Numbered from the stretch's first letter, positions 9,873 to 56,167 are shown. The stretch is 64,000 nt of DNA from an uncultured Actinomycetes bacterium (GCA_963746895.1 CAVVDI010000012.1:28600-92599), one strand, 5' to 3'. A program made the numbers and translations. Notes: a model not told the origin generated them from the letters alone.

Positions 9873-11750
9873 TCATGCGGGGACGCCGGTGACGGTCGGC
9901 ACGTCCGCGACGACGACGCCCGGCTCGCCGAGCAGGCGCAGCTTGAGCGCGAGCTCGAACGGGTGGCGCCCCTGTTCGACGAGCGAAGGCGCCCGGAACT
10001 GCTCGGGGACGACGATCGTGACGAAGTCCGACTCGCCGCGCGGCAGGCGCCAGACCTGCTCGAGGACGGCGTCGACGGCGCCGCCGTCCGGGGAGAGCGC
10101 CTCGAGCGGCCGCCGCCCGCCGGTCCGGCGGAACCAGCGCGGCCGGATGCCGGGATCGGTGCCCCGACGCGGCACGTGGATCGCGCGCAGGTCGTCGCCC
10201 GCGATCGTCTCCGCGAAGCGCAGCGCCCGGTCCGCCGCGGGCTCGAGCGCCTCGACGACGAGCAGCGTCCGGTTGCGCGCCTCCGGCGCCGAGGCGACTG
10301 CCGCCGCGCCCGCCCGCAGCCGCCGTGCGACGCGGGCGTAGTGGCGCCGGATGCCGAGCATGCCGAGCACGAGCAGCGGGATCGCGACGGTCACGAGCCA
10401 GGCTCCCTCGGCAAACTTCGTCCAGACGACGATCGCCGTCACGAGCCCGGTCGCCGAGGCGCCCGCAGCGTTGACGGCCGCCCTCGCCTTCCAGCCGCCC
10501 ACGCGCGTCCGTCGCCAGTACCGCACCATCCCGGCCTGGGAGAGCGTGAAGGCCGTGAACACGCCGACGACGTAGAGGTGGATCAGGCTGTTCGTGTCGG
10601 CGCCGTAGATCCAGAGCAGCGCCGCCGCGAGCGCGGCGAGCACGAGCATCCCGTTCGAGAGCACGAGCCGGTCGCCGAGGTTCGAGAACTGCCGCGGCGC
10701 GAAGCGGTCGCGCGCGAGCAGCGCCGCGAGCCGGGGGAAGCCCTGGAACGACGTGTTCGCCGCGAGAATCAGGATCAGCAGCGTCGTCGCCTGGACGACG
10801 TAGAAGGCGAAGCCGAGCGGCGTCCCGGGCCGGAAGACCGAGCGCGCGACCTGCGAGACGACCGAGGCGGTCGCGCTCGGCGCCGCATGCACGCGCACCG
10901 CGAGGTACGAGAGGCCGAGGAAGAGCGAGATCGTGATCGCCCCCAGCGCGCCGAGGGTCGTCGCCGCGTTCCGTCCCTGCGGGTGGCGGAAGGCGTTGAC
11001 GCCGTTGGCGATCGCCTCCACCCCGGTCAGGGCGGTCGAGCCGGACGAGAAGGCGCGGAGCAGCACGAACGTCGTCACCGCGCCGGTGCCGGCGGGGAGC
11101 GCATCGGGCACGACCGCGTGGTGGAGGTCGCCGCGTACGAGCTCGACGAAGCCCGTCCCGATCAGCGCGAGCAGCGCCGCGACGAAGGAGTAGGTCGGAA
11201 GCGCGAAGAACAGCCCCGACTCGCGAACGCCGCGCAGGTTGGCGAGCACGATCACGACCAGACAGGCGAGCGAGAGGCCGACCCGGTGCGCGCCGAGGGA
11301 CGGCGCGAACGAGGTGATCGCGAAGATCCCGGCCGAGATCGAGACGGCGACCGTGAGCACGTAGTCGGTGAGCAGCGCCGCCGCGCCGACGAGGCTCGGC
11401 ATCACGCCGAGGTTCTCCCGCGCGACGACGTAGGCTCCGCCGGCCGAGTCGTAGACGCGCACCGTCTGGCGGTACGACAGGATCACGACTCCGAGCAGCA
11501 GCGCGATCGCGATGGCGAGCGGGAAGACGAGGTGCCCGGCGAGCGAGGACGCGGCGACGAGCACGACGAGCGCCTCCTCGGTCGCGTACGCGTTCGAGGA
11601 GAGCGGGTCGGAGGCGAAGATCGGCAGCGCCAGCCACTTCGGGAGAAGCGTCTCCTCGAGCTGGCCCGTGCGCATCGGACGCCCGACGAGGACGCGCCGC
11701 AGCCGTCGCGGCTCGAGCTCCTCCTGCTCGGCCTCGCGGAGCGCGCTCAC
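9873..11750 (-). CDS. APC-superfamily permease with cytoplasmic C-terminal domain
   Basis: The first 194 codons of the tracked 819-aa ORF are GC artefact overlapping the upstream gene. An in-frame GTG at 11750 overlaps that gene's stop (GTGA). The product (VSALREAEQ...LPKWLALPIFASDPLSSNAYATEEAL...) is a typical actinobacterial APC permease. Confidence 0.8.
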   Translation of the reverse strand: MSALREAEQEELEPRRLRRVLVGRPMRTGQLEETLLPKWLALPIFASDPLSSNAYATEEALVVLVAASSLAGHLVFPLAIAIALLLGVVILSYRQTVRVYDSAGGAYVVARENLGVMPSLVGAAALLTDYVLTVAVSISAGIFAITSFAPSLGAHRVGLSLACLVVIVLANLRGVRESGLFFALPTYSFVAALLALIGTGFVELVRGDLHHAVVPDALPAGTGAVTTFVLLRAFSSGSTALTGVEAIANGVNAFRHPQGRNAATTLGALGAITISLFLGLSYLAVRVHAAPSATASVVSQVARSVFRPGTPLGFAFYVVQATTLLILILAANTSFQGFPRLAALLARDRFAPRQFSNLGDRLVLSNGMLVLAALAAALLWIYGADTNSLIHLYVVGVFTAFTLSQAGMVRYWRRTRVGGWKARAAVNAAGASATGLVTAIVVWTKFAEGAWLVTVAIPLLVLGMLGIRRHYARVARRLRAGAAAVASAPEARNRTLLVVEALEPAADRALRFAETIAGDDLRAIHVPRRGTDPGIRPRWFRRTGGRRPLEALSPDGGAVDAVLEQVWRLPRGESDFVTIVVPEQFRAPSLVEQGRHPFELALKLRLLGEPGVVVADVPTVTGVPA

Positions 11751-12328
11751 AGGTCGAGCGCTCCCCGCACCCGCGCGAGCAGCCGCGCCAGCTCCCCGGG
11801 AGCCGTCTCGCCGTAGAGCGGGCTGCCCGGGTCGCGCAGCAGCGAGCGCACGAGCAGCATCCCCCGCGCGGTCACCGGACGTTCGTCGGCGAGCCGGTCG
11901 GCGATCGCACGCAGCAGGTCGGCGTGGGGCCGCAGCGCCGCCCGCCGCAGCGGCGACGACGACGGGAGATGGGCCGGATCGAGCTGGTGGAGCGTCCGCT
12001 CGACCTCGCACCGGAGCGCTGCGCGGCCCTCGGAGTCGACGAGCTCGTGCGCGCGCCACTGGATCAGCTCCGAGACCTCGCCGCCTCGCGGGTCGGTGAC
12101 GATCAGGCGGTCGACCGCGCGCCGGATGCCCGCCAGCTCGCGGCGCGCGCGGAGGGCGCGACCGGCGGCCGCGACGCTGAAGCAGCCGGCGGCGACGAGC
12201 CCCGCCGTCCGGAGCGTCGGGTCGAGCTCCAGCGCGAGCGCCAGCGCCGCCAGGGCGAGGAGCGGCAGCGCGGCCCGCCCCGGGTGAGGCAGGTCGAGCG
12301 TCCCGAAGCGTGGACCGTGCGCCGCCAT
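11747..12328 (-). CDS. hypothetical membrane-anchored protein
   Basis: 193-aa ORF with GC3-rich codons and one or two N-terminal hydrophobic segments (ALPLLALAALALALEL, GLVAAGCFSVAAAG). It is translationally coupled to the downstream permease. No family recognised. Confidence 0.5.
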   Translation of the reverse strand: MAAHGPRFGTLDLPHPGRAALPLLALAALALALELDPTLRTAGLVAAGCFSVAAAGRALRARRELAGIRRAVDRLIVTDPRGGEVSELIQWRAHELVDSEGRAALRCEVERTLHQLDPAHLPSSSPLRRAALRPHADLLRAIADRLADERPVTARGMLLVRSLLRDPGSPLYGETAPGELARLLARVRGALDL

Positions 12329-12394
12329 GCACCGACCGTAGGCCGCGGCGGCTCAGGCGAGGCTCAGGATCCCGGCGCGCGCCTCAGGGAGATC

Positions 12395-17664: not shown

Positions 17665-19236
17665 TCAGACGAGGCCGCCGGTGTAGCGCCAGGGGCCCGA
17701 CTGGAACCGGATCCCGCGCTTGCGGCAGAACTCGCGCACCGAGTCGAGCAGGACGCCGCCGCCGCCGTACGCCTGCCGCCCGAGCAGGTCGAGCACCGCC
17801 ACCCCGGCGGGCGGGTCGCCGGCGAGCCCGAGCGTGAGCACGACGGTCTCCCCCTCGCCGGGATCGACGCCGCCGGCCGAGAGCCGCTCGACGAACAGCA
17901 CGCGCCCCGGGCCCTCCGGGCCGGTCAGCTCGACCCGCTCGACGCCGCCGCGGTCGACGTGGTCGGCGTCGACCCCGCGCAGGACGAGCAGCTCGTGCAG
18001 CTCGTGCAGCATGCGCCGGACGAGCGCGACCTGCCTCGGCCGCGTCATCGGCCGGCTGGCCGAACCGGCGACCTTCGCCGGGACGCCGACGACGAGCATC
18101 CCCGCCGGGACGTCCGAGACCACGTACGAGTTCGAGGCGACGATCGCCTCGCGCCCGACGCGCGAGCCGGCGTAGACGACCGCCCCGAGCCCGACCTGGG
18201 CGCGGTCCTCGACGACGATCCCGGCGAAGCGGTTCTCGAAGCCCTCGAGGACGGAGTGACCGATGTTGTGCGTGACGAGCATCGAGCGCATGGTCACGAA
18301 CGTCTCGGACCCGATCAGCACGGGCCGGCTGACGTTGACGAACACCTCGTCGCCGAGAAAGGCGAGGTCGCCGAGCACGAACGTCGCCCAGGGGTCGCGG
18401 TGGCCGCCGCCGGCGATCAGGAGGTTGGCGCCGGCCCAGACGCCGCTGCCGACGTACGCGCGCCGGCAGGCGAGCCGGAGCGAGGGGCCGAAGCGGCTGC
18501 CCGCCCCGATCGCGACCACCTCGGCGCACTCGACGCTGCCGCCGCGCTCGATCCGGACGCCGTCCTCGAGCACGATTCGCGCGGCGATCACGACGGTTCC
18601 CGCACCGAGGAGCACACCCTCGCCGATCCGCGCGCCCGCCTGCCGGTAGGCCTCGCACTTCTGCTCCGAGGACAGCGCGCCGAACGCGTCCGGATCGGCC
18701 CGGAGCGAGGCGAGGAAACCCTCGTCGACGGCACCCTCCCGCTCGTCGAGGCCGAACAGGGCCGGGAGCGTCACCTGCTCGGTCGAGAGCCCGGCGAGCA
18801 CCGGATCGAGCCCGCCCGGACGCTCGCCCGCCGCCGTGCGGATCATGGCCTCGACGTCGGCGGAGGTGACGAATCCCGACTTCTCGAGCTCGCTCAGGTC
18901 GAGGCCGTGGTGCGCCGCGAGCTCGGCGGCGCGGCGCGTGACGTTGCGCTGCGCCGGCCCGCTGGTGTCGGCCGGCTGCTCGACCCGCCGCTCCTCCGCC
19001 GCCGCGAGCTCGCCCTCGTTCTCCGCGACGACGGCGATCGTCGTGCCGAGCTCGACCTCGACTCCCTCGCCGACGAGCTGGACGAGGATGCCGTCGCCGG
19101 GAGCCTCGATCTCGATCGAGGCCTTCGACGTCTCCACGACGCAGAGCGGCCGGCCCTTCCTCACCCGCGCGAGGTCGTCCGCGATCCACTCGGAGAGAAG
19201 TGCCGACTCGCTGTTCGCGTCCTCGCGCGTGAGCAC
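17665..19236 (-). CDS. E2-like lipoyl-carrier / hexapeptide-repeat (LbH) acyltransferase fusion protein
   Basis: Four regions in order. A lipoyl-attachment domain (SEWIADDLARVRKGRPLCVVETSKASIEIEAPGDGILVQL). A peripheral-subunit-binding-like motif (TRRAAELAAHHGLDLSELEKSGFVTSADVEAMI). Long hexapeptide repeats (IGEGVLLGAGTVVIAARIVLEDGVRIERGGSV...VGLGAVVYAGSRVGREAIVASNSYVVSDVPAGMLVVGVPAKV). About 140 aa of unassigned C-terminus. The start is uncertain: GTG 19236, or a CTG a few codons upstream. Confidence 0.8.
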   Translation of the reverse strand: MLTREDANSESALLSEWIADDLARVRKGRPLCVVETSKASIEIEAPGDGILVQLVGEGVEVELGTTIAVVAENEGELAAAEERRVEQPADTSGPAQRNVTRRAAELAAHHGLDLSELEKSGFVTSADVEAMIRTAAGERPGGLDPVLAGLSTEQVTLPALFGLDEREGAVDEGFLASLRADPDAFGALSSEQKCEAYRQAGARIGEGVLLGAGTVVIAARIVLEDGVRIERGGSVECAEVVAIGAGSRFGPSLRLACRRAYVGSGVWAGANLLIAGGGHRDPWATFVLGDLAFLGDEVFVNVSRPVLIGSETFVTMRSMLVTHNIGHSVLEGFENRFAGIVVEDRAQVGLGAVVYAGSRVGREAIVASNSYVVSDVPAGMLVVGVPAKVAGSASRPMTRPRQVALVRRMLHELHELLVLRGVDADHVDRGGVERVELTGPEGPGRVLFVERLSAGGVDPGEGETVVLTLGLAGDPPAGVAVLDLLGRQAYGGGGVLLDSVREFCRKRGIRFQSGPWRYTGGLV

Positions 19237-19250
19237 GATCTCGAGCAGCG

Positions 19251-20297
19251 TCAGCTCCTCGCTCCCGCGAGCGCGGACACCGCCGCCACGACGTCGTCGA
19301 CCCCCGGCAGCGCCTCGTCCTCGAGCGCGCGGGCGGACGGGACGATCCCGTCGCGCGCGGCGACACGGCGCACCGGCCCGCGGAGGTCGTCCCACGCCTC
19401 GGCCTGGACCCGCGCCGCGATCTCGGCGCCGAGGCCCGCGGTGAGCGTGCCCTCCTCGATCGTGATCAGCCTGCCGGTGCGCGCAACCGACTCCAGCACG
19501 GGGTCGAGATCGAGCGGCAGCAGCTGCCCGAGCGCCACGACCTCGGTGAAGATCTCCTCCTCGAGGATGAGCGACGTCGCTGCCTCGAGCGCGATCGGGA
19601 GCATGCCCCCGTAGGTGACGAGCGTCGCCTCCGCACCCGAGAGCCCGTTGCCGGAGAAGGTCAGCGCCGGCCACGGCCCCTCGGTCTCGAGGCAGCGGAA
19701 CTCGTCCACGTGCCCGTTCACCGGCCGCCGCTCGAGCCGTCCGTACATGAGCTTGTTCTCGATGAAGAACACGGGGCGGTCGTCGTCGACCGCGGCGGCC
19801 AGCATCCCGCCGATGTCGTGGCACTCGCTCGGAGCCACGACGACGATCCCGGGCACGCCGAGCAGCAGCTTCTCGAGCGACTGGCTGTGCGTCGGGCCGT
19901 AGCCGCGGCGGCCGCCCATCGGGGTGCGCACGACGAGCGGGACGGTCGCCTGCTCGTCGAACATCTCACGGAACTTGGAGATCCCGTTCACGATCTGGTC
20001 GAAGCCCAGGGTGATGAAGTCGCCGAACATGATCTCGACGATCGGCCGGTAGCCGCGGAGCGCGAACCCGGCAGCCACCCCGAAGATCGAGGCCTCGCTC
20101 ACCGGCGTCGGCAGCACCCGGTCGGGCCACGCGGTGCTCAGCCCGGCGCTGGCCTTGAAGGCGCCGCCGTAGGGGTCGAGCAGGTCCTCGCCGATCAGGT
20201 AGACGTCGTCGCGCCGCTCGAAGATCTCGTGCAGGCCCGCGTTCAGCGCCTGCACGCAGCGTCTGGGAGGCTCGGTCGAGCCGACGCCGCCGCTCAC
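19251..20297 (-). CDS. TPP-dependent 2-oxoacid dehydrogenase E1 component, beta subunit
   Basis: 348 aa. Transketolase pyrimidine-binding and C-terminal pattern (IGEDLLDPYGGAFKASAGL...PVSEASIFGVAAGFALRGYRPIVEIMFGDF...VVRTPMGGRRGYGPTHSQS). GTG overlaps the E1 alpha stop (GTGA). Confidence 0.9.
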   Translation of the reverse strand: MSGGVGSTEPPRRCVQALNAGLHEIFERRDDVYLIGEDLLDPYGGAFKASAGLSTAWPDRVLPTPVSEASIFGVAAGFALRGYRPIVEIMFGDFITLGFDQIVNGISKFREMFDEQATVPLVVRTPMGGRRGYGPTHSQSLEKLLLGVPGIVVVAPSECHDIGGMLAAAVDDDRPVFFIENKLMYGRLERRPVNGHVDEFRCLETEGPWPALTFSGNGLSGAEATLVTYGGMLPIALEAATSLILEEEIFTEVVALGQLLPLDLDPVLESVARTGRLITIEEGTLTAGLGAEIAARVQAEAWDDLRGPVRRVAARDGIVPSARALEDEALPGVDDVVAAVSALAGARS

Positions 20298-21214
20298 GCC
20301 GCGACGCCGCCCGAGGCGACCGGAGCTGCCAGGGCCTCCTCGACGGCCGTCTCGAGCCGCCGCGCGACCTCCTGCTCGAGCTCCCGGCGCGCGTGCCGGT
20401 CGAGATCATCGCCGAGGACGGTGAGCGGGTCGCGTTCGCGGCGCGCCTCGATCTCGGCCGGGTCGCGGAAGTCGTCACCCTTGCTGTGGGGCGCGAAGCG
20501 GTAGGTGTCGAGCACGAGGAAGAAGGGCTTGCCGGTGTTCCGGACGTGGCGGACGGCCCGCTCGGCGGCGTCCCGGATCTCGGTCACGTCGGTCGAGTCG
20601 AGCCGCCCCGTCGCGATCCCGAAGGCGGCCGCGCGCGCCTCGACGTCGCCCGCCAGCTGGAGGCTCGACGGCGTCGACTGCGCGTAGCCGTTGTGCTCGA
20701 CGACCACGAGCAGCGGCAGGTCCCAGAGCGCGCTCAGGTTCAGGCTCTCGTACACGACGCCCTGGCCGAGGGTCCCGTCGCCGATGAAGACGGTCGCGAT
20801 CCCTCCCTCGCCCTTCTCGCGCTGCGCGAGCGCGATCCCGGCGGCGAGCGGCACGGTGCTGCCGAGAACGCCGTTCGAGTAGAAGTTGTCGGCGCAGAGG
20901 TGCTGGCTGCCGCCCTTGCCGCCGCAGACGCCTCCCTCGCGGCCGAGCACCTCCCGCAGCAGCCCGTCGACGTCGCCGGTCAGCGCGAGGTAGTGCCCGT
21001 GACAGCGGTGGTTCGAGACGACGACGTCCCGGTCGGCGTCGAGGCAGGCGACGACGCCGACGGCGTTCGCCTCCTGGCCGATGCAGGTGTGGGTCGTCCC
21101 CGACATCTTCCCGGCGGAGAAGAGGTGGAGCAGGGTCTCCTCGAAGCGCCGGATCATGAACATCGCGGCGTAGAAGCCGTGAACGGCCGTGTGGACGGTG
21201 TGCGCTTCCAGCAT
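20294..21214 (-). CDS. TPP-dependent 2-oxoacid dehydrogenase E1 component, alpha subunit
   Basis: TPP-binding motif FIGDGTLGQGVVYESLNLSALWDLPLLVVVEHNGYAQSTP. The likely start is ATG 21214 (MLEAHTVH) with GGGGAGA upstream. The tracked ORF begins 14 codons earlier. Confidence 0.9.
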   Translation of the reverse strand: MLEAHTVHTAVHGFYAAMFMIRRFEETLLHLFSAGKMSGTTHTCIGQEANAVGVVACLDADRDVVVSNHRCHGHYLALTGDVDGLLREVLGREGGVCGGKGGSQHLCADNFYSNGVLGSTVPLAAGIALAQREKGEGGIATVFIGDGTLGQGVVYESLNLSALWDLPLLVVVEHNGYAQSTPSSLQLAGDVEARAAAFGIATGRLDSTDVTEIRDAAERAVRHVRNTGKPFFLVLDTYRFAPHSKGDDFRDPAEIEARRERDPLTVLGDDLDRHARRELEQEVARRLETAVEEALAAPVASGGVAA

Positions 21215-21308
21215 CGGTTCTCCCCAACTCCCGCCTACGCATGCGTGCGCGCGCATGCGCAGCGGGATGCGATCGAGCGAATCCTAATCGAGGCTGCGGC
21301 CGCCGCGG

Positions 21309-22505
21309 CTACAGATAGCCGAGATCGGCCAGGCGGGACTCCACCGCGGCGGCGTCGCCGGCGCTCAGCTCCGTCTGCTCGATCGTCTCGAGCTCCGCGT
21401 ACAGCCGCTCGCGCAGGTCGGGAGGCGCCTCGTCGGGAACGCTCCTCCGCTCGCGCGGGTCGAGGTCGAGCCGGTAGGCCTCCTCCGTCCCGGACTCGAC
21501 GTGGACGAGGAGCTTCCAGGGCGGCTGCCGCAGCGCGAGCTGGGAGACGCGCCCGCCGTCGGTGCCGACGATCCACACGGGACGGTCGCCCCGCTCCGTC
21601 CCGTCGAGGAGCGGCAGCACGGAGGAGCCGTCGACGCCCTCGAGCGGCGCTCCGCCGAGATCGAGCAGCGTCGGCGTCAGGTCGACGAGGCTCACCTGCT
21701 CCGCGACGACGGCGCCCGGCTCGATCCGCCCCGGCGCGGAGAGGAGCAGCGGCACCTCGACGATCTCCTCGAAGAGCGTGGCGCCGTGCATGTGGTAGGT
21801 GCCCTTGACGGCCTGCTTGTCGGGGAAGCGCTCGCCCCAGGACTCGCCGTGGTCGCTGAGGAACGCGATCGCCGTCTCCTCGCGCAGGCCGAGCGCGTCG
21901 AGCTCGCCGAGGAAGCCGGCGAGGAGCTGCTCGGAGGAGCGCTCGACCGCCTGCGCGTACGACTCGCGGAGGGCATCGAGCGCGGCGGCGCTGTCGGACT
22001 GGATCCCGCTCATGATCGCCTGCTTCGCCGCGAGCCACTCCCTGCGCTCCGCGTGCTGCACGTCGTAGGGCATGTGCGTCGCCCAGCTGTGGAACCAGAG
22101 GAGGAACGGCCGGTCGCGGTGCGCGCGCAGCCACTCGACGGCGCCGTCGAGCGTCTCGCTCGTGCCGGCGACGTTCGCGTCGGGGAAGCCCTTGAACAGG
22201 TAGCTCTCGTCGAAGACGAAGCTGCCGGTCGCGTAGCCGTGGGCGGCCGCGACGGAGAAGAGCGTCGGCAGCGCCGGGTCGAGCTGCGCGTCCCAGTGCA
22301 GGAAGCCGTGGTGGTGCGGGTAGAGGCCGGTGATCATCGAGGTGGTCGACGGGCACGTCCACGGCGCGGCCGCGACGGCCTGGTCGAAGCGGGCGCCGCT
22401 CGCGGCGAGCCCGTCGATCGTCGGCGTGCGGACGCGCCGTGCGCCGTAGCAGCCGACGTGGTCGGTGCGGAGAGCATCCGAGACGTAGACGATCAGGTTC
22501 CTCAT
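21309..22505 (-). CDS. sulfatase-fold (alkaline phosphatase superfamily) enzyme lacking the Cys-x-Pro-x-Arg sulfatase signature
   Basis: Real start is ATG 22505 (MRNLIVYVSDALRTDHVGCYG), overlapping the upstream stop (ATGA). The sulfatase N-terminal metal/nucleophile region reads AAPWTCPSTTSMITGLYP, and FLSDHGESWGE is also present. No signal peptide. Confidence 0.8.
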   Translation of the reverse strand: MRNLIVYVSDALRTDHVGCYGARRVRTPTIDGLAASGARFDQAVAAAPWTCPSTTSMITGLYPHHHGFLHWDAQLDPALPTLFSVAAAHGYATGSFVFDESYLFKGFPDANVAGTSETLDGAVEWLRAHRDRPFLLWFHSWATHMPYDVQHAERREWLAAKQAIMSGIQSDSAAALDALRESYAQAVERSSEQLLAGFLGELDALGLREETAIAFLSDHGESWGERFPDKQAVKGTYHMHGATLFEEIVEVPLLLSAPGRIEPGAVVAEQVSLVDLTPTLLDLGGAPLEGVDGSSVLPLLDGTERGDRPVWIVGTDGGRVSQLALRQPPWKLLVHVESGTEEAYRLDLDPRERRSVPDEAPPDLRERLYAELETIEQTELSAGDAAAVESRLADLGYL

Positions 22506-23887
22506 GCCGCCGCCAGCTCCGCAGCGAGGCTGCGCCCGCGCATGTCGTCGGGGACGGGGAGCCCGAGCAGATCGAGCACGGTCGGCGCGACGTCGAGCAG
22601 GTGCGCGTCGTGCACGCCGCGCGCGCCGACGCCCGCGCCGGCGGCGATCCAGAGCCCGTCCTGGGCGTGGTTCGCGTCGTCGGGGCCGGTGTCGTTCTCG
22701 AAGGTGTGGACGCCCTCGTCGCCGCCGATCGTCCCGACCGAGCGCCAGAGGAGGTCGCCGAAGATCACGATCAGGTCGGGCGCGACGCCCTCGACCTCGT
22801 CGTAGAGCTCCTCCGGCTTGTAGACGCGCGTGCCGATCGGATCGCCGTGCTCGTCGGGGATCGCGGCGAGCCGCCGCGCGAGGTCGTCTCGAACGCGCTC
22901 GTAGTCGGCGGCCGGGATCGTCCCCTGCGGCTCGCGCCCCTCGACGTTGAGGAAGACGCGCGCGTAGTAGCCGCCCTCGCCCCACGCGGTCGTGCGCGCC
23001 CAGTCGATGCCGACGTCGCGCGGCGAGCAGACGTCGTCCGGCTCCCGCTCGGTCGCGAGCAGGCCTTCCAGCCGCAGCCACTCGTTGACGCGGATGCCGC
23101 CCTCGAGCCGCTTCGCGCCGTGGTCGGAGACGACGAGCACGAGCGTCTCGTCGTCGACGTGGCGGAGCAGCTTCGCGATCAGTCCGTCGACGTGCTCGTA
23201 GTAGTCGCGGATCGCGTGCTCGTACGGGTTTCCCTCCTCGTGCTTGCGGTGCGCCGCGTCCATGTGCTTCCAGAAGCCGTGGTGGATCCGGTCGGTGCCC
23301 ATCTCGACCATCGCGAACAGCTGCCACGGCTTCGCCTCGGCCAGGTGCTCGGCGAGCCGGAAGCGCGTGTCCGTCATCTCGTAGACCTGGCGCAGCAGGT
23401 CGTCCTTGTCCTCGGTGCGGAAGTTCGTGCAGTCGAAGAGGTAGTCGCCGCCGACGACCTCGCGGATCTCGTCGCGCAGGGCCGGCGGATACGTGTAGCG
23501 GCTCTCGAGCGACGGCGTGAGGAAGCAGCCGACCATCGCGCCGCGCAGCGGGCGAGGCGGAAAGGTGCCGGGCACGCCGAGCACCACCGAGCTGCCGCCG
23601 CCGCGCCCGACGAGGTCCCAGAGCCGCGGCGCGCGGATCGCCGTGCCGTCGGCGATGAAGTTCCCCTCGTAGGTGTGGTCGGCCCGGTTGCGGAAGCCGT
23701 AGACGCCGAGGTCGCCGGGCGTGCGGCTCGACATCATGCAGGACCAGGCGGGCACGGTGATCGGCGGGATCACGGACGTCAGACGCCCGTGGACGCCGTT
23801 CTCCGCGAGCCCCGTGAGCGTCGGCAGCCGGTCGCGCCAGCGCTCGAACACGAGCGACGGCTCGGCACAGTCGAGCCCCACGATCAT
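22502..23887 (-). CDS. alkaline-phosphatase-superfamily phosphodiesterase/pyrophosphatase-like protein (COG3379-type)
   Basis: Real start is ATG 23887 (MIVGLDCAEPSLVFERW). NPP-type nucleophile region IPPITVPAWSCMMSSRTPGDLGVYG, plus VVSDHGAKR. No signal peptide. The long N-terminal extension in the track is artefact. Confidence 0.8.
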   Translation of the reverse strand: MIVGLDCAEPSLVFERWRDRLPTLTGLAENGVHGRLTSVIPPITVPAWSCMMSSRTPGDLGVYGFRNRADHTYEGNFIADGTAIRAPRLWDLVGRGGGSSVVLGVPGTFPPRPLRGAMVGCFLTPSLESRYTYPPALRDEIREVVGGDYLFDCTNFRTEDKDDLLRQVYEMTDTRFRLAEHLAEAKPWQLFAMVEMGTDRIHHGFWKHMDAAHRKHEEGNPYEHAIRDYYEHVDGLIAKLLRHVDDETLVLVVSDHGAKRLEGGIRVNEWLRLEGLLATEREPDDVCSPRDVGIDWARTTAWGEGGYYARVFLNVEGREPQGTIPAADYERVRDDLARRLAAIPDEHGDPIGTRVYKPEELYDEVEGVAPDLIVIFGDLLWRSVGTIGGDEGVHTFENDTGPDDANHAQDGLWIAAGAGVGARGVHDAHLLDVAPTVLDLLGLPVPDDMRGRSLAAELAAA

Positions 23888-23928
23888 CACCCTGCGTGCG
23901 GCGGCCCCCTCCCCCACGGGAGCCAACT

Positions 23929-25413: not shown

Positions 25414-26649
25414 CTAGCCGAGCAGGCGCGCGGCGACGGCGGCCCAGCTCCAGCGCCGCTCGACTGCCCGGCGGGCGGCGAGCCCCAGGGCGCGGCGCTC
25501 CTCCCGGGGCAGCGCGAGCAGCTCGGCGAGCCGCTCCCGCAGCGCGATCGCGTCCCCGGTCGGGAAGGAGACGAGCCGCGCCGCACCGGACGGGTACTCG
25601 GCCGCGATCCCGGCGGCGACCTCGGCCAGCCCCGAATGGTTCGCGACGAGCGGCGGCACCCCGGCCGCAGCCGCCTCGGCCGCGACCATCCCGAAGGCCT
25701 CCGGGAAGATCGAGGGCACGACGGCGACGTCGCAGAGCGGCAGCAGGTGCACGAGATGGCGGTGCTCGAGCGGGCCGGGGAACAGCGTGCCGGCCGGCGC
25801 CTCCGCCTCGAGCGCCCCGCGGAAGTCGCCGAACCCGACCACGACGGCCCGCGCGTCGAGGCCGCGCAGCGCCTCGAGGAGCACCTGGACGCCCTTGTTC
25901 TCGATCAGCTTCCCGAAGTAGACGACAGTCGGCCGCTCGTCGCCGAAGAAGTCGGCGAACCGCTGCACGTTGCCCTCGTCCGGCTGCCGCTCCTCGGTGT
26001 TGCCGGGGTTGGGCGGATCGTTCCGCGCCTCGACGAGCAGCGAGGCGAGCGCCTGCGCCCGCGGCTCGGGACGGAACTCCCCTGGGTCGACGCCCGGCGG
26101 GACGGTGTGGACGCGGTCGACGTGGCCGACGACGTCCTCGAGCACCTCGCGGATGTGCTCGGAGCCCACGTACACCGCGTGCGCACGGGCCAGCGACTCC
26201 GCGCCCCAGGCTCGCAGCTCCGCGTTGCCGCGCATCGAGTACTCGAGCTCGGAGCCGTGCGCCTTGACGGCGAAGCGGGCCCCGGTCGCCGCGCCGACCG
26301 GACCGCCGAGGAGGACGTGGTTCGCGAAGACCAGGTCGGCGGGGAGCAGCTCCCGCAGCGCAGCGGCGTTCGCCTCGACGTAGGCCGCCCGCTGGGCCCG
26401 GGTGAGGTCCTGCAGCAGGCGCGGCTCGAGGCCCTCGTAGCGGTCGAGCACGAAGACGGGCAGCAGGCGCTCCGGCAGCTCGGGAACGACGACGCGCGCG
26501 CGCCCGAGGTCGAAGCGCTCGGGGTGACGCTCCTGGCAGACCACCGTCACGTCGTGCCCGGCGAGGCTCCATTCCCGCGCGAGCGCGCGCGTGTAGACGT
26601 TCGAGCCGGTGCCCCCGAGCAGGTAGCCGTGCCAGATCAGGATCCGCAC
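25414..26649 (-). CDS. glycosyltransferase, GT4 (GT-B fold) family
   Basis: 411 aa. N-terminal MRILIWHGYLLGGTGSNVYTRALAREW. C-terminal EX7E-like region [33 protein letters not shown]. Confidence 0.85.
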   Translation of the reverse strand: MRILIWHGYLLGGTGSNVYTRALAREWSLAGHDVTVVCQERHPERFDLGRARVVVPELPERLLPVFVLDRYEGLEPRLLQDLTRAQRAAYVEANAAALRELLPADLVFANHVLLGGPVGAATGARFAVKAHGSELEYSMRGNAELRAWGAESLARAHAVYVGSEHIREVLEDVVGHVDRVHTVPPGVDPGEFRPEPRAQALASLLVEARNDPPNPGNTEERQPDEGNVQRFADFFGDERPTVVYFGKLIENKGVQVLLEALRGLDARAVVVGFGDFRGALEAEAPAGTLFPGPLEHRHLVHLLPLCDVAVVPSIFPEAFGMVAAEAAAAGVPPLVANHSGLAEVAAGIAAEYPSGAARLVSFPTGDAIALRERLAELLALPREERRALGLAARRAVERRWSWAAVAARLLG

Positions 26650-33637: not shown

Positions 33638-34609
33638 CTAGCAGGCGCGGTCCCCGTCGGCGGATCCCGCCCGCGTGCCGATCTCGCGCAGGCTCCCGAG
33701 CGAGAGCCCCTCGCGCAGGAGGAAGACCACGCCGCCGACGTAGCCGACCGAGGACTCGATCGCCTGGAGCCCGATCCCGTACGCGAACCCGTGCGCATAC
33801 GGGACGCCGTAGGGGACGAGCGGCAGCGCGATCGCGGCCTGCTGCAGGCCGACGTTCCCCGGCCAGAGCGGCAGGATCAGGGCGACGTTCATCAGCGCGA
33901 GCACCGCGGCGGCCGCCGTGATCGGCAGCGAGAGGTTGAACGCGCGCATCGCAGTCCAGACGGCGCCGAGCTGCAGCGTCCAGGCCGCCGTCTGCAGCGC
34001 GATCGCCTGGAACGCGGGACCCGGCCGGCGGAGGACGCCGAGGCCCTCGCGGACCTGCGAGACGACGGCGCGGAGCCTGCCCGTGCCCGAGACGTCGCCG
34101 CGCTCGTGGCGGCGCGCGAACAGCAGCCCCGCGAGGAACAGCGCGATCCCGAGGCCGAGCACCGCGAGCAGCGACGTGCGCCCCCAGCCCGGGATCCTCG
34201 CCGCGGCGAGCACCCAGACGATCAGCCCGATCGAGGGGAAGATCTCCAGCAGCCGGTGCGCGACGACGCTGCCGATCAGTGGCGGCCACAGCCCGCGCCG
34301 GCCCGGTAGGTGGCGCCGGAGCACGCCGACGCGGGCGACCTCGCCGACGCGGCCGGGCAGGACGCCGTTGGCGAAGATGCCGACGAAGACGGCGGAGAAG
34401 ACGTCGAGCAGGCGCGGGTGCGGCGGCGGGATGGCCTGCACCACCACCGTCCGCCAGGCAAGGCCGCGCACGAGCGCCGAGACGAGGTTGATGGCGACCG
34501 CGGCGAGCGCCCACGACCAGCGCATCTGCGTCAGCGCGTGACCGACCGCTCCCCAGTGGGGCCCGCGGAAGACGAGCAGCGCGACGACCGCGGCGCCGGC
34601 GGCCGCCAC
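33638..34609 (-). CDS. flippase-like / lysylphosphatidylglycerol-synthase TM-region family membrane protein (UPF0104)
   Basis: 323 aa with about 8 TM segments. The pattern FVGIFANGVLPGRVGEVARVGVL is typical of this family. Confidence 0.65.
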   Translation of the reverse strand: MAAAGAAVVALLVFRGPHWGAVGHALTQMRWSWALAAVAINLVSALVRGLAWRTVVVQAIPPPHPRLLDVFSAVFVGIFANGVLPGRVGEVARVGVLRRHLPGRRGLWPPLIGSVVAHRLLEIFPSIGLIVWVLAAARIPGWGRTSLLAVLGLGIALFLAGLLFARRHERGDVSGTGRLRAVVSQVREGLGVLRRPGPAFQAIALQTAAWTLQLGAVWTAMRAFNLSLPITAAAAVLALMNVALILPLWPGNVGLQQAAIALPLVPYGVPYAHGFAYGIGLQAIESSVGYVGGVVFLLREGLSLGSLREIGTRAGSADGDRAC

Positions 34610-34652
34610 CAGCAGCGCGTGCAGCAGTCTGGCGCGGGGCAGCGAGCCCGCC

Positions 34653-36303
34653 TCAGCAGCCGCGGTGGCCGAGCAGCTCGCCGACCAGGCCCTCGGGCGT
34701 GGCGGGCACCGAGACGGTGAAGGGGCCAGCGCGTCTGAGGTCGAGCCACGTCATCTTCGCCGGGCCACGCCGGACGCAGCCCCGGCCGTGCAGCTGCCAG
34801 TACGGGTTGTAGTGAGCCCGCAGCAGGTAGCGGCCCGGCTTGGCGACGGTGCCGCGGATCGCCGTGTGCCCGAAGGCGGTGACGACCGAGCGCCCGGGAC
34901 CGCTGAGGAGCGGCGTCGGCTTCGGCAGGCGGTAGATCGTCCAGTCCTTGCTCCGGTAGACGACGTGGAGACCGGAGCCCGGCGAGCGAAGCACCCGGGC
35001 CTCCTGCGGGCCGCCGTCCCAGTCGAGCGGCGTCGACGCCAGGAGCACGTACTCGACCGCCGACTCGCGCAGCCAGCGCCGATAGGAGGTCGCGTTCAGG
35101 TGCTTCGCGTAGAGCGCGGGGTTGTCGACCGTGTCGAGCTGGCGGTACCACCCGCGGGCGAGTGCGAAGCCCGCCTTCGGCACCCAGTACGCCTCCCAGT
35201 GCGACGCCGTCGGCACGACCTCGATCCGGTAGCCCGGGCTCGCGTGCGCGCGCAGGTAGGAGAGCGCAGGCTGCCAGAACGACGCCGCCGCCGGACGGTT
35301 GTCCAGCCGGTACGGGATCAGGAGCAGGTAGGGGACGACGTTGTAGGCGAACGCGACGGCCAGGGCGAGGGCGACGAGCCGCCGCGGGCGGAACGAGGCG
35401 AGCCCGGCCGTCAGCAGCATCACCGGGAAGACGAACGCGCTCAGCCGCGTCCAGTTGTCGCCGAGCGGGGTGCGGACGACGTAGAACACGATGCTGCCGA
35501 GCCCCCAGAGGGCGTAGAACGCGAGCAGCGGCCCCGCGCCGCGCGCGCGCCGGGCGACGAGCGCGCCGAGGCCGGTGACGAGCACGACTCCTGCGAAGTC
35601 GATCCAGTGGAAGGGGTAGACGCCGGTGTTCGCCGGGAAGAGGAGGAGCGCCGCGCCCTCCACGCCGGCTGCCGCTCCGAGGCCGAGCACCGTCACGAGC
35701 GTCTTCCGCGGCAGCGGCCGCCGCGAGAGGCCGATCGCCGCGAGCACCAGGCAGAGGAAGACGAACGCGAGCGGGCTGAAGCCGACCGTCAGCACCGCCA
35801 GCACCAGCGCGAACCGCCGCCGCCCCACCTGGAAGGCCTTCAACGCGCCGAGCATCGCGGTGAACCCGAGCGAGTAGCTGTAGAGGCCGGTGAACATCGG
35901 CGCCGCGGCGAGGACGCCGAAGATCCGGCTCGGCCAGAGCGCCGCTCGACCCCACTCCCGCAGGGCGATCGAGGCGAAGAGCACGGTCGACACCACGGCG
36001 GCCGCGAAGACGAGCGGCAGGTTCCCGAACGACCGCGGCCGGCAGGTAGTAGAGCAGGCTGTACGAGGCGAGCGGGTACGTGCCCGCGTACCAGAAGTTG
36101 TCCCAGATCAGCGAGCCGTGGCGGACGAGCAGCGTCCGGTACAGATGGACCGGCGCGTCTCCGGGCGCAGGCCCGATCGCGAGGACGAGAGCCGCGAAGG
36201 CGGCGGTCAGGCCCGCACCGATCAGCAGCTCGCGCCGCCGGATCAGCCGCGGCAGCTCGGTCAGCTCGGTGGCGACGGATGCCGTTGCGGTCGCTGAGGT
36301 CAT
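34653..36303 (-). CDS. large polytopic membrane protein with extracytoplasmic C-terminal domain (GT-C-like candidate), interrupted by a 1-nt insertion
   Basis: The N-terminus sits in one tracked ORF (MTSATATASV...HLYRTLLVRHGSLIWDNFWYAGTYPLASYSLLYYLPAAV). The rest is in ORF 34653-35996, in the +1 frame (FGNLPLVFAAAVVSTVLFASIALREWG...). Total length is 1651 nt. The junction is at about 36028-36032. Function is not assignable from sequence alone. Confidence 0.6.
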
Positions 36304-54855: not shown

Positions 54856-55284
54856 ATGGAGGAGCGTTATCCCGTCGGAGAGACCGATTCCGCGGCCGTC
54901 GCCGTGGTGCGCCACGAGCGGCGCGACGCCGGCTACCCGCAGTGGACGGCCACGCTCGGCCTGCGCGGAGGCGAGGCGACGGTCAGCGTTCCGGGCCACT
55001 ATCCCGCCGTCCTCGCCGAGCGGATCAGGCAGGCGAGCGCGCGCTTCGTGCCCGGCTCGCGGCTGGCGCGGGACGAGTATCTCGACCTGACGGCGCTCGC
55101 GCGCGGCGACGAGGAGACGCTCGCGATCTCCTCGAGCGCGCGGTCGCCGGTACGCGTGACGATCGAGGTGCCCCGCGGCGAGCTGGAAGGTCTCGCTGCG
55201 CTGCTCGACGCCGCGCAGGAGCTGATCGAGACGCTCCGGCAGGGGCTCGGGCTCGTCCCGGACAGCCTGCCCGAGGCGCTGTGA
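54856..55284 (+). CDS. hypothetical protein
   Basis: 142 aa from ATG 54856 (MEERYPVGETDSAAVAVV...). GC3-rich codons. No family recognised. Confidence 0.45.
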   Translation: MEERYPVGETDSAAVAVVRHERRDAGYPQWTATLGLRGGEATVSVPGHYPAVLAERIRQASARFVPGSRLARDEYLDLTALARGDEETLAISSSARSPVRVTIEVPRGELEGLAALLDAAQELIETLRQGLGLVPDSLPEAL

Positions 55285-55351
55285 GCGTCGGCTCGACGGA
55301 GCTCTCCGGGGAGTGGAGGCGCCGGCTCGGCCGCCGCCGGGAGCGGGTCTA

Positions 55352-56167
55352 GTGGCGCTGCGCGACTACGGCGCCGCGGGCGCTCGGGTCGCGCGGCGGG
55401 CGGTGCGGCGGCCGCGCCTGGGCCGCGAGGAGCGGGTCGTCTTCGTCGTCGGCTGCCTGCGTTCGGGGACGACGTTCCTGGGCGGCGCGCTCGGCTCGCA
55501 GCGGGGCTTCGTCGACCTCGGCGAGGTGACCCCCTGGAAGGCGGCCCTGCCGGCCCTGTACGAGCGCCGCGAGCGAGGCGGCGAGCGCGAGCTGCGGCGG
55601 ATCCTCGAGCGGGTTCGCCTGCTCGGGCTCGCGCCGGGGCTGCGCGGCGTCGAGCAGACGCCGGAGACGGCGCACCTGCTTGCGGCCGCGCTGGCGGCGT
55701 ACCCGCGCGGGCTGGCCGTCCACGCCCTGCGCGACGGGCGCGACGTGGTCTGCTCGGTGCTCGAGCGCGGCTGGCTCAGCCGCACGCGAGCCGGAGCCGA
55801 CGACGCGGGGCTCGCGTACGGGCCGCACGCGCGCTTCTGGGTCGAGCCGGAGCGGCGCGACCAGTTCGCGGAGGCGAGCGACGCGCGGCGGGCGGCGTGG
55901 GCGTGGCGGCGCTACGTGGAGGCGGCCCGCGCGGCGGCGCCCGGGCGGACGTTCGAGCTGCGCTACGAGCGGCTGGCGAGCGATCCGGACGGCGCCGCCG
56001 ACGAGCTCGCGGCGTTTCTCGGTTCGGAGCCCGCGCCGTTGCGTCTCGCCTTCGAGCGGTTCACGGACGCGAGCATCGGCCGCTGGCGGCGCGACCTCGA
56101 CGCGGCGCAGCTCGCGGACGTCGAGGCCGAGGCCGGTCCGCTCCTCGCCGAGCTCGGCTACGCCTAG
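55352..56167 (+). CDS. sulfotransferase-family protein
   Basis: 5'-PSB-like loop VVGCLRSGTTFLG, RDGRDVVCS, and a C-terminal RWRRDL. The start is uncertain: GTG 55352, or the tracked 55313. Confidence 0.6.
   Translation: MALRDYGAAGARVARRAVRRPRLGREERVVFVVGCLRSGTTFLGGALGSQRGFVDLGEVTPWKAALPALYERRERGGERELRRILERVRLLGLAPGLRGVEQTPETAHLLAAALAAYPRGLAVHALRDGRDVVCSVLERGWLSRTRAGADDAGLAYGPHARFWVEPERRDQFAEASDARRAAWAWRRYVEAARAAAPGRTFELRYERLASDPDGAADELAAFLGSEPAPLRLAFERFTDASIGRWRRDLDAAQLADVEAEAGPLLAELGYA

Follow-up and report, generated by a model that had tools for sequence, protein, structure and literature searches.

What can an E2-like protein do that carries the lipoyl arm of a 2-oxoacid dehydrogenase complex and is encoded directly behind E1 alpha and E1 beta, when the catalytic core of an E2 is replaced in it by an acyltransferase of another fold? 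The question is raised by a locus in a stretch of 64,000 nucleotides from an uncultured Actinomycetes bacterium (GCA_963746895.1, CAVVDI010000012.1:28600-92599), called here the window, which has a GC content of 70-76% and whose closest relatives are metagenome-assembled genomes (MAGs) of Gaiellales (Thermoleophilia). The textbook E2 core is a chloramphenicol acetyltransferase (CAT)-like acyltransferase making acyl-CoA. In the protein considered here, further called the fusion protein, a lipoyl domain and a probable, shortened peripheral-subunit-binding domain (PSBD) are followed by a helical cap, a left-handed beta-helix (LbH) transferase domain and a new C-terminal domain. Judged from these sequence features, it is moderately probable that the five-gene operon encoding it specifies a cut-down 2-oxoacid-dehydrogenase-like machine, which would pass an acyl group from the lipoyl arm to an acceptor other than CoA.

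Anatomy and integrity of the fusion protein

The N-terminal lipoyl-attachment domain, claimed for this protein in an earlier sequence-only reading, was recognised by the Biotin_lipoyl model (PF00364, residues 14-69, 1.6e-8), and its attachment residue, Lys38, was invariant in alignments of 40 close homologues and of 32 diverse family members. A Foldseek search with the AlphaFold2 (AF2) model of the whole fusion protein matched lipoyl domains (e.g., 3crk_C, rmsd 1.9), the domain being modelled with a pLDDT of 84-92. Behind it, the alignments with PRK05704 and 3duf_I extended through residues ~98-136, in which two short helices (101-109 and 125-135) were modelled. The E3_binding model (PF02817) was not significant in the Pfam scan of the window protein itself; it was significant in 9 of the 32 diverse members, at the same alignment block (best 7.3e-15), which argues that the segment is probably a real, if shortened, subunit-binding domain. 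The subunit-binding-like motif of the sequence-only reading is thus supported by its helices and its relatives, but not by a significant Pfam match of its own. Foldseek also recovered E2 models comprising lipoyl domain plus PSBD, and a profile of the 40 homologues matched the lipoyl domains of E2 and E3BP in the PDB. NCBIfam E2 models reached only to residue ~135 of the fusion protein.

The canonical E2 core is absent, as had been proposed, since no match to 2-oxoacid_dh (PF00198) was obtained in the fusion protein at E<=1, and a DHRxxDG motif was missing both from it and from every other coding frame of the window. Hexapep (Pfam PF00132/PF14602) and WcaF/NeuD-type matches occupied residues 282-395, and 31 of the 32 diverse members matched PF00132. 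The NCBIfam models WcaF, NeuD, HpsU, EpsC, CysE, LpxA, DapH and PaaY matched residues 282-417, all far under their cut-offs (54 against 192 bits for WcaF, 41.8 against 160.8 bits for NeuD, TIGR03570). The TIGR03570 match covered only the final 50 model residues, and the nucleotide-sugar-binding domain PglD_N (PF17836) had no match in the fusion protein. In the PDB the profile of the 40 homologues found the LbH transferases VCA0836, PerB, WlbB, QdtC, MAT, GAT and DapH, and Foldseek found WlbB, QdtC, DapH and LpxA. In the AF2 model of the whole protein (pLDDT 70.6) a cap helix at residues 172-199 preceded beta-helix coils running from ~215 to 392. Pfam, NCBIfam, the PDB profile and Foldseek accordingly agree with the predicted ~200 aa of hexapeptide-repeat beta-helix of the sugar/amine acetyltransferase type.

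The putative catalytic residue of this domain, His323, was aligned with His115 of E. coli LacA, the catalytic His of that enzyme. Invariant positions in the 32 diverse members were Lys38, N301, T322, H323, G332, G349, G384, P386, A387 and G491, and R501, R505, G508 and W516 in the C-terminal part were nearly invariant. This part ends in the motif REFxRKRGIRFxPxPWRY and, modelled alone with AF2, gave a pLDDT of 92.3 and a pTM of 0.87. No match was found for it in Pfam at E<=1, and nothing better than E=0.23 was found in the PDB by Foldseek. A sequence search with the domain alone returned only fragments of the fusion family and no other architecture. The description of the C-terminus as ~140 unassignable residues therefore holds as far as Pfam and PDB relatives are concerned, but the segment is ~125 aa long and forms a confidently folded, conserved domain.

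At E<=0.001, 950 proteins were returned by a search with the fusion protein. Of the 120 best, which were listed, almost all were full-length proteins of ~520 aa with 59-77% identity and Biotin_lipoyl plus Hexapep domains, labelled "biotin/lipoyl-containing protein" at NCBI and "isoleucine patch superfamily" at JGI. An exhaustive HMMER scan of representatives of 50%-identity clusters gave 131 matches at E<1e-30 with the same architecture, full-length ones reaching down to ~25% identity. The database search for the architecture that the sequence-only reading had suggested thus yielded hundreds of full-length homologues. No curated NCBIfam or Pfam family matched the fusion protein at its cut-off, no solved structure with the lipoyl-LbH architecture was found in the PDB by the profile and Foldseek searches, and no paper in the literature searched described it, in agreement with the earlier statement that no characterised example was known. 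One paper (PMC4875605) was dropped as irrelevant, its "lipoyl" referring to fatty-acylation.

The third gene could in principle be an assembly or sequencing artefact uniting a lipoyl-carrier gene with a separate acetyltransferase gene. Some stretches of the window do hold overlapping ORFs in two frames (e.g., 9873-12383), and one entry 97% identical to the fusion protein (P0033, on a 386-kb contig) is called at only 397 aa (69% of the query), probably through truncation of the gene call in a nearly identical genome. Between 19200 and 17700, however, one frame keeps a third-position GC of 0.90-1.00 throughout, so that no frameshift junction is present; almost all of the 120 best homologues, drawn from independent assemblies, are full length, and the architecture is constant down to 25% identity. 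The continuous frame and these homologues already refute the artefact, whose probability is negligible, and with it the notion that a sequence error joined a separate LbH gene to the lipoyl part.

The E1 genes and the Gaiellales operon

The E1 genes preceding the fusion gene were identified as proposed. E1 alpha matched PF00676 (1.7e-54) and contained the thiamine diphosphate (ThDP) motif GDG-X27-N; the transketolase-like fold of E1 beta was supported by Transket_pyr (PF02779, 2.4e-27) and Transketolase_C (PF02780, 2.2e-25) matches. Both subunits remained well under the equivalog cut-offs of pyruvate dehydrogenase (PDH) E1 (247 bits with a cut-off of 394 for TIGR03182, 232 bits with a cut-off of 321 for PRK09212), which marks them as divergent paralogues. 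The best PDB relative of E1 alpha was a mitochondrial-type PDH E1 alpha (153 bits, against 80 bits for branched-chain 2-oxoacid dehydrogenase, BCKDH), and the PDB relatives of E1 beta were the E1 beta subunits of PDH and BCKDH. Between the window and a distant locus in an Omnitrophica MAG (L086) the E1 subunits were 49-50% identical (E1 alpha 49%), whereas the fusion proteins shared only 29%; the better conservation of E1 points to a dedicated E1 subfamily.

As described before, the three genes are tightly linked; they lie on the minus strand (Table 1). The GTGA overlap of the E1 genes (E1 alpha stop 20294-20296, E1 beta GTG 20297-20295) and the 14-nt gap between the E1 beta stop (19251-19253) and the fusion GTG at 19236 were both seen in the sequence. 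The E1 alpha ORF reaches position 21256, and the 21214 given earlier is an alternative start. The grouping of E1 alpha, E1 beta and fusion genes stands, but two further co-directional genes upstream had been missed, the ATG of the sulfatase-family gene overlapping the stop of the preceding PF01663 gene as ATGA; the operon comprises five genes, 17665-23917, not three. Some homologues of the fusion protein begin four codons earlier (MLEIVLTRED), others at the same M/V as in the window. The window codon matching the earlier start is CTG 19246-19248 (LLEIVLTRED), 2 nt past the E1 beta stop, so from the sequence the start may be either this rare CTG at 19248 or the GTG at 19236. Consensus scans for promoters and terminators between 17300 and 24400 revealed nothing, as expected at 73% GC. 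No second lipoyl motif was found in the window.

Table 1. Genes of the operon and parts of the fusion protein, with positions counted in the window
Feature	Position	Strand	Description
PF01663 (Phosphodiest) gene, alkaline phosphatase superfamily	22502-23917	minus	~471 aa, cytoplasmic; first gene of the operon in the Gaiellales lineage
Sulfatase-family (PF00884-type) gene, alkaline phosphatase superfamily	21309-22505	minus	398 aa
E1 alpha	20294-21256	minus	320 aa; ThDP-binding subunit, PF00676
E1 beta	19251-20297	minus	348 aa; pyrimidine-binding and transketolase C-terminal domains
Fusion protein	17665-19236	minus	523 aa; lipoyl, subunit-binding, helical cap and predicted LbH acyltransferase, new C-terminal domain
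Lipoyl domain	19012-19236	minus	residues 1-75; attachment Lys38 (codon 19123-19125), motif VETSKA
Probable shortened PSBD	18829-18945	minus	residues ~98-136, NVTRRAAELAAHHGLDLSELEKSGFVTSADVEAMI
Helical cap and LbH transferase domain	18052-18744	minus	cap ~165-200, LbH ~200-395; conserved
Putative catalytic His323	18268-18270	minus	invariant across the family
C-terminal domain	17668-18051	minus	residues 396-523, ~125 aa; long helix, beta-sheet, helix

Both upstream genes encode members of the alkaline phosphatase superfamily. The first matched Phosphodiest (PF01663, 5.6e-44) and was 78% identical in tblastn to its orthologue in locus L001; its start was set at GTG 23917, following the N-terminus of the homologue, and neither a PDB sequence relative nor an NCBIfam family was found for it. 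The second was 84% identical in tblastn to its orthologue in L003, in which Pfam detected Sulfatase and SGSH_C domains. In an alignment to the sulfatase 7stt, Thr occupies both its nucleophile position and the position of the motif's Arg. The sequence W-T-[CA]-P-[SA]-[TM] is kept in all of its orthologues (~70), and no C/S-x-P-x-R formylglycine motif is present. A sulfatase or sulfamidase role was rejected because this motif is missing. The product has no signal peptide, its N-terminus leading directly into the catalytic core; by analogy with the Thr-nucleophile members of the superfamily it is likely to be a cytoplasmic phosphoryl-transfer enzyme rather than the sulfatase as which homology-based annotation would miscall it. 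A phosphonate route, from phosphonopyruvate through a phosphonoacetyl group to a PhnA-like hydrolase, was also considered and dropped, as neither alkaline-phosphatase-type protein matched the PhnA model and no other sign of phosphonate metabolism was seen.

A scan of GTDB species representatives gave 173 stretches confirmed by tblastn, and only Gaiellales were present among the 80 loci kept. When genes upstream on the same strand were counted in the Gaiellales loci with enough sequence, the fusion gene was preceded by E1 beta in 78/78 and by E1 alpha in 74/74. The sulfatase-family gene was found upstream in nearly all (69/71) and the PF01663 gene in 45 of 67. Genes farther from the operon were variable and of the housekeeping kind.

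Other parts of the window contain three envelope- or glycan-related genes, for a GT4 glycosyltransferase (25414-26649, 1.5 kb upstream of the operon), an LPG_synthase_TM-family protein (33638-34750) and a sulfotransferase-family protein (55226-56167); none of the three was kept beside the operon in the other Gaiellales loci. The two-frame stretch 9873-12383 contains the long minus-strand ORFs 9873-12332 and 11747-12352. An amino-acid-permease match of the former (819 aa) starts only at residue 252, and the overlap may reflect a frameshift-type sequence error.

A different downstream partner was seen in the clade of L123-L125, whose fusion proteins are 43-47% identical to that of the window. 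The gene right after the fusion gene (L123:8446-9294, L125:2000-2782) encodes a conserved protein of 260-282 aa with 50% mutual identity and the motif LRHDIDVSP, for which no Pfam or NCBIfam family was found. Its chitin-deacetylase-like PDB matches were non-significant (E=0.4-0.8) and were not counted as evidence of such an identity.

Nonulosonic-acid clusters of distant clades

The order E1 alpha, E1 beta, fusion was kept even at 25-35% identity, in L085, L086, L087, L093, L096-L099, L101, L104, L105 and L111, judged where the upstream sequence sufficed. As exceptions, L088 had no E1 genes beside the fusion gene, and in L102 they lay ~4 kb away. In these distant clades the triad sits inside pathways for nonulosonic acids (NulO; legionaminic or pseudaminic acid). 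The recurrent gene order, seen in L087, L098, L101, L105 and L111, was 4,6-dehydratase (PseB/LegB-like), DegT aminotransferase, PglD, NeuB, E1 alpha, E1 beta, fusion, Epimerase_2, PIG-L, NTP-transferase and CMP-NulO synthetase; Maf/MptE-like and flagellar genes were close by in some loci. The PIG-L de-N-acetylase gene lay no more than two genes from the fusion gene in 17 loci, and the fusion protein was the sole unassigned acyltransferase in the NulO clusters. A de-N-acetylase needs a transferase that re-acylates its product, so PIG-L beside the fusion protein argues for acyl transfer to an amino sugar and not to CoA. The arrangement suggests an N-acyl swap on a legionaminic or pseudaminic acid (Leg/Pse) precursor, in which the acyl group would be other than acetyl, and lends indirect support to the prediction of a non-CoA acceptor. 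As the triad occurs in differing contexts, it is a portable module plugging into different pathways.

The NulO cluster of L086 contained, in addition to the triad, a canonical E2 (L086:792-2207, Biotin_lipoyl plus 2-oxoacid_dh, 390 aa), followed directly by genes for a 79-aa acyl carrier protein (ACP; PP-binding, PF00550, 23.3 bits) and a GNAT. The single E1 pair of this locus may serve two different lipoyl-carrying transferases. Genes for an HpcH/HpaI aldolase, a 2-hydroxyacid dehydrogenase and methyltransferases were also present; that they supply hydroxylated 2-oxoacids is a speculation.

A different interpretation, which we consider rather unlikely but of some weight, takes the LbH domain as a non-homologous stand-in for the E2 core that would still acylate CoA from dihydrolipoamide, the operon then encoding an unusual pyruvate or 2-oxoacid dehydrogenase. 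The product may be a special acyl-CoA on which another transferase, for instance PglD, would draw. All accessories of an E2 are indeed kept (lipoyl domain, probable PSBD, adjacent E1 genes), E1 alpha is nearest to PDH-type E1 alpha, the operon is almost universal in Gaiellales, among housekeeping genes, and PglD-type transferases co-occur in the NulO clusters. Classical CAT, with the fold of the E2 core, and LbH xenobiotic acetyltransferases are functional analogues, and together with the exchange of the core in AcoC they provide precedents for such a replacement. On the other hand, LbH enzymes are not known to form CoA thioesters, and the characterised LbH relatives found all acylate O or N. 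In the NulO clusters a de-N-acetylase adjoins the fusion protein and PglD is already required for the standard N-acetylation, whereas in L086 the canonical E2 would be redundant if the fusion protein made acyl-CoA.

Shorter relatives were encoded in L108 (9977-10765), L109 and L110. Both lipoyl domain and PSBD are missing from this 262-aa protein, which retains just the final LbH coils (IFTHSFWQSVLDGY) together with the C-terminal domain. It represents either a catalytic module in its own right or a remnant. The gene behind it in L108 had a weak match to GlcNAc-phosphatidylglycerol deacetylase (E=0.003), and a PglD-like gene was nearby. LbH enzymes normally use acyl-CoA. The domain in the fusion protein might do the same to acylate an acceptor, with the lipoyl-like domain serving for tethering or regulation, or it might load the dihydrolipoyl arm from acyl-CoA; the short proteins would fit this if the catalytic module works, or once worked, alone. 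A mere tether, however, poorly explains the invariant lipoyl Lys, the kept PSBD and the strict adjacency to dedicated E1 genes, and the L108-type proteins, from which the greater part of the helix is missing, are possibly remnants. This reading is improbable.

Proposed acyl transfer and its known counterparts

Returning to transfer from the lipoyl arm to a non-CoA acceptor, the sequences establish the domain anatomy, its conservation, the linkage of the operon and the genomic contexts. The course set out here is one that we infer from homology and gene context, and this applies to lipoylation, to which 2-oxoacid is used, to the direction in which the acyl group moves and to its acceptor. The E1 alpha-beta heterotetramer would decarboxylate a small pyruvate-like 2-oxoacid in a ThDP-dependent manner and reductively acylate lipoyl-Lys38, the fusion protein docking E1, and likewise an E3 that is shared, by way of the short PSBD. 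The acyl-dihydrolipoyl arm would then swing to the LbH site of the same protein and take the place of the pantetheine arm of acyl-CoA or acyl-ACP. His323 would deprotonate a hydroxyl or amine of the acceptor for attack on the thioester, so that the acyl group would reach a non-CoA acceptor with acyl-CoA bypassed, and the arm would be reoxidised by a dihydrolipoamide dehydrogenase encoded elsewhere. For the distant clades, a nonulosonic-acid precursor stripped of its N-acetyl group is the most likely acceptor. In Gaiellales it is probably a metabolite or glycan processed by the two co-transcribed Thr-nucleophile enzymes of the alkaline phosphatase type, for example one dephosphorylated to expose a nucleophile.

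This proposal draws on the presence of lipoyl domain, PSBD, LbH domain and new C-terminal domain in one continuous frame, on the invariance of the lipoyl Lys and of the LacA-aligned His down to 25% identity, on the E1 genes immediately upstream in Gaiellales and in nearly all distant loci with sequence, on the nearest LbH relatives, which are all sugar/amine O/N-acetyltransferases, and on the precedent of the QncN/L/M and SclQ1-4 systems described below.

Several observations weigh against it. PIG-L, NeuB, Epimerase_2, DegT and PglD were not detected in the window or in any of the 80 Gaiellales loci, so the sugar acceptor is deduced from relatives that are only 25-35% identical. That the operon is present almost throughout Gaiellales is in keeping with a housekeeping role, and an enzyme forming acyl-CoA would suit such a role as well; the PglD-type transferase of the NulO clusters could in principle use acyl-CoA made by the triad. 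Residues 246-339 of the beta-helix were modelled with a pLDDT below 50. As the sequence-only reading had noted, no E3 gene is nearby: no Lpd redox-disulfide motif was found in the six frames of the 64-kb window and no Pyr_redox match among the window ORFs scanned. In the literature searched the family is unstudied.

Extended to the family as a whole, the proposal becomes more tentative, and we put it forward as a possibility that may well fail. It would describe a widespread CoA-independent acylation in which an E1-charged lipoyl arm feeds the fused LbH domain. In many bacteria such a system would be the missing source of unusual Leg/Pse N-acyl groups after the action of PIG-L, the module having been rewired in Gaiellales to a phospho-metabolite or envelope pathway with two Thr-nucleophile enzymes.

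The fusion proteins form a real and large family and a new take on the 2-oxoacid dehydrogenase theme, absent from the curated libraries searched. If the proposed transfer is true, the lipoyl arm would be a general acyl carrier for tailoring reactions, like phosphopantetheine on ACP, and the CAT/LbH pair of folds, known already from chloramphenicol acetyltransferases, would have been recruited a second time independently. The family would offer a concrete candidate for the installation of non-acetyl N-acyl groups on bacterial nonulosonic acids. Its C-terminal domain has no solved structural relative, and a conserved five-gene operon is flagged in Gaiellales, an abundant and barely cultured soil lineage.

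Compared with the canonical E2 of PDH, 2-oxoglutarate dehydrogenase (OGDH) and BCKDH complexes with alpha-beta E1, the fusion protein has the same N-terminal lipoyl domain with the lysine of E-T-x-K-A, a probable PSBD, and a gene that comes straight behind those of E1 alpha and E1 beta and is translationally coupled to them; in the canonical systems, too, E3 may be encoded elsewhere. It differs in having the LbH and the new C-terminal domain instead of the CAT-like PF00198 core with DHRxxDG, in an expected trimeric state instead of a 24- or 60-mer, and in an acceptor that is probably not CoA. By its sequence it is E2-like up to the acyl-lipoyl stage and fails the defining PF00198 core. A related case is the AcoC-type E2 of some acetoin dehydrogenase systems (NCBIfam PRK14875), in which a lipoyl domain is likewise fused to a non-canonical catalytic module beside E1 alpha-beta genes. 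In some AcoC proteins the E2 core is swapped for another fold; PRK14875 matched the fusion protein over the lipoyl part only (residues 9-90), the catalytic part of AcoC is not LbH and its product is still acetyl-CoA.

On the transferase side, the fusion protein shares with WcaF, LacA/MAT, NeuD/PglD, PerB, WlbB and QdtC the beta-helix coils, the C-terminal GVPA motif and the conserved His on a loop before the last coils. It adds to them the helical cap, a covalently attached lipoyl carrier, the PSBD and the C-terminal domain, and its donor is presumably acyl-lipoyl, whereas theirs is acyl-CoA. From its sequence it belongs to the LbH superfamily and lies outside all curated families of it. LpxA and LpxD, to which sequence and fold matches were weak, are likewise LbH acyltransferases; their acyl group comes from a thioester tethered to a protein by a swinging arm (acyl-ACP) and is placed on O or N of a sugar. 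They use a separate phosphopantetheine-bearing ACP, in contrast to a fused lipoyl domain that would be charged oxidatively by E1.

The closest functional parallel is provided by QncN/QncL/QncM and SclQ1-4, the sources of the glycolyl unit in quinocarcin and in scleric acid (PMC6335953 and its ref. 34). In these systems a lipoyl arm hands the acyl unit to an ACP, a non-CoA acceptor (PMC6335953). As proposed for the fusion protein, an E1/transketolase-like ThDP enzyme loads the lipoyl arm and the acyl group goes to a non-CoA acceptor in biosynthesis. The Qnc and Scl systems keep a canonical E2-type acyltransferase domain and use an ACP as acceptor, whereas the transferase of the fusion protein is of the LbH type and no PP-binding match was found among the neighbouring ORFs scanned in the window. 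The canonical E2 with its ACP in L086 is arranged like QncL/QncM (SclQ4/SclQ1).

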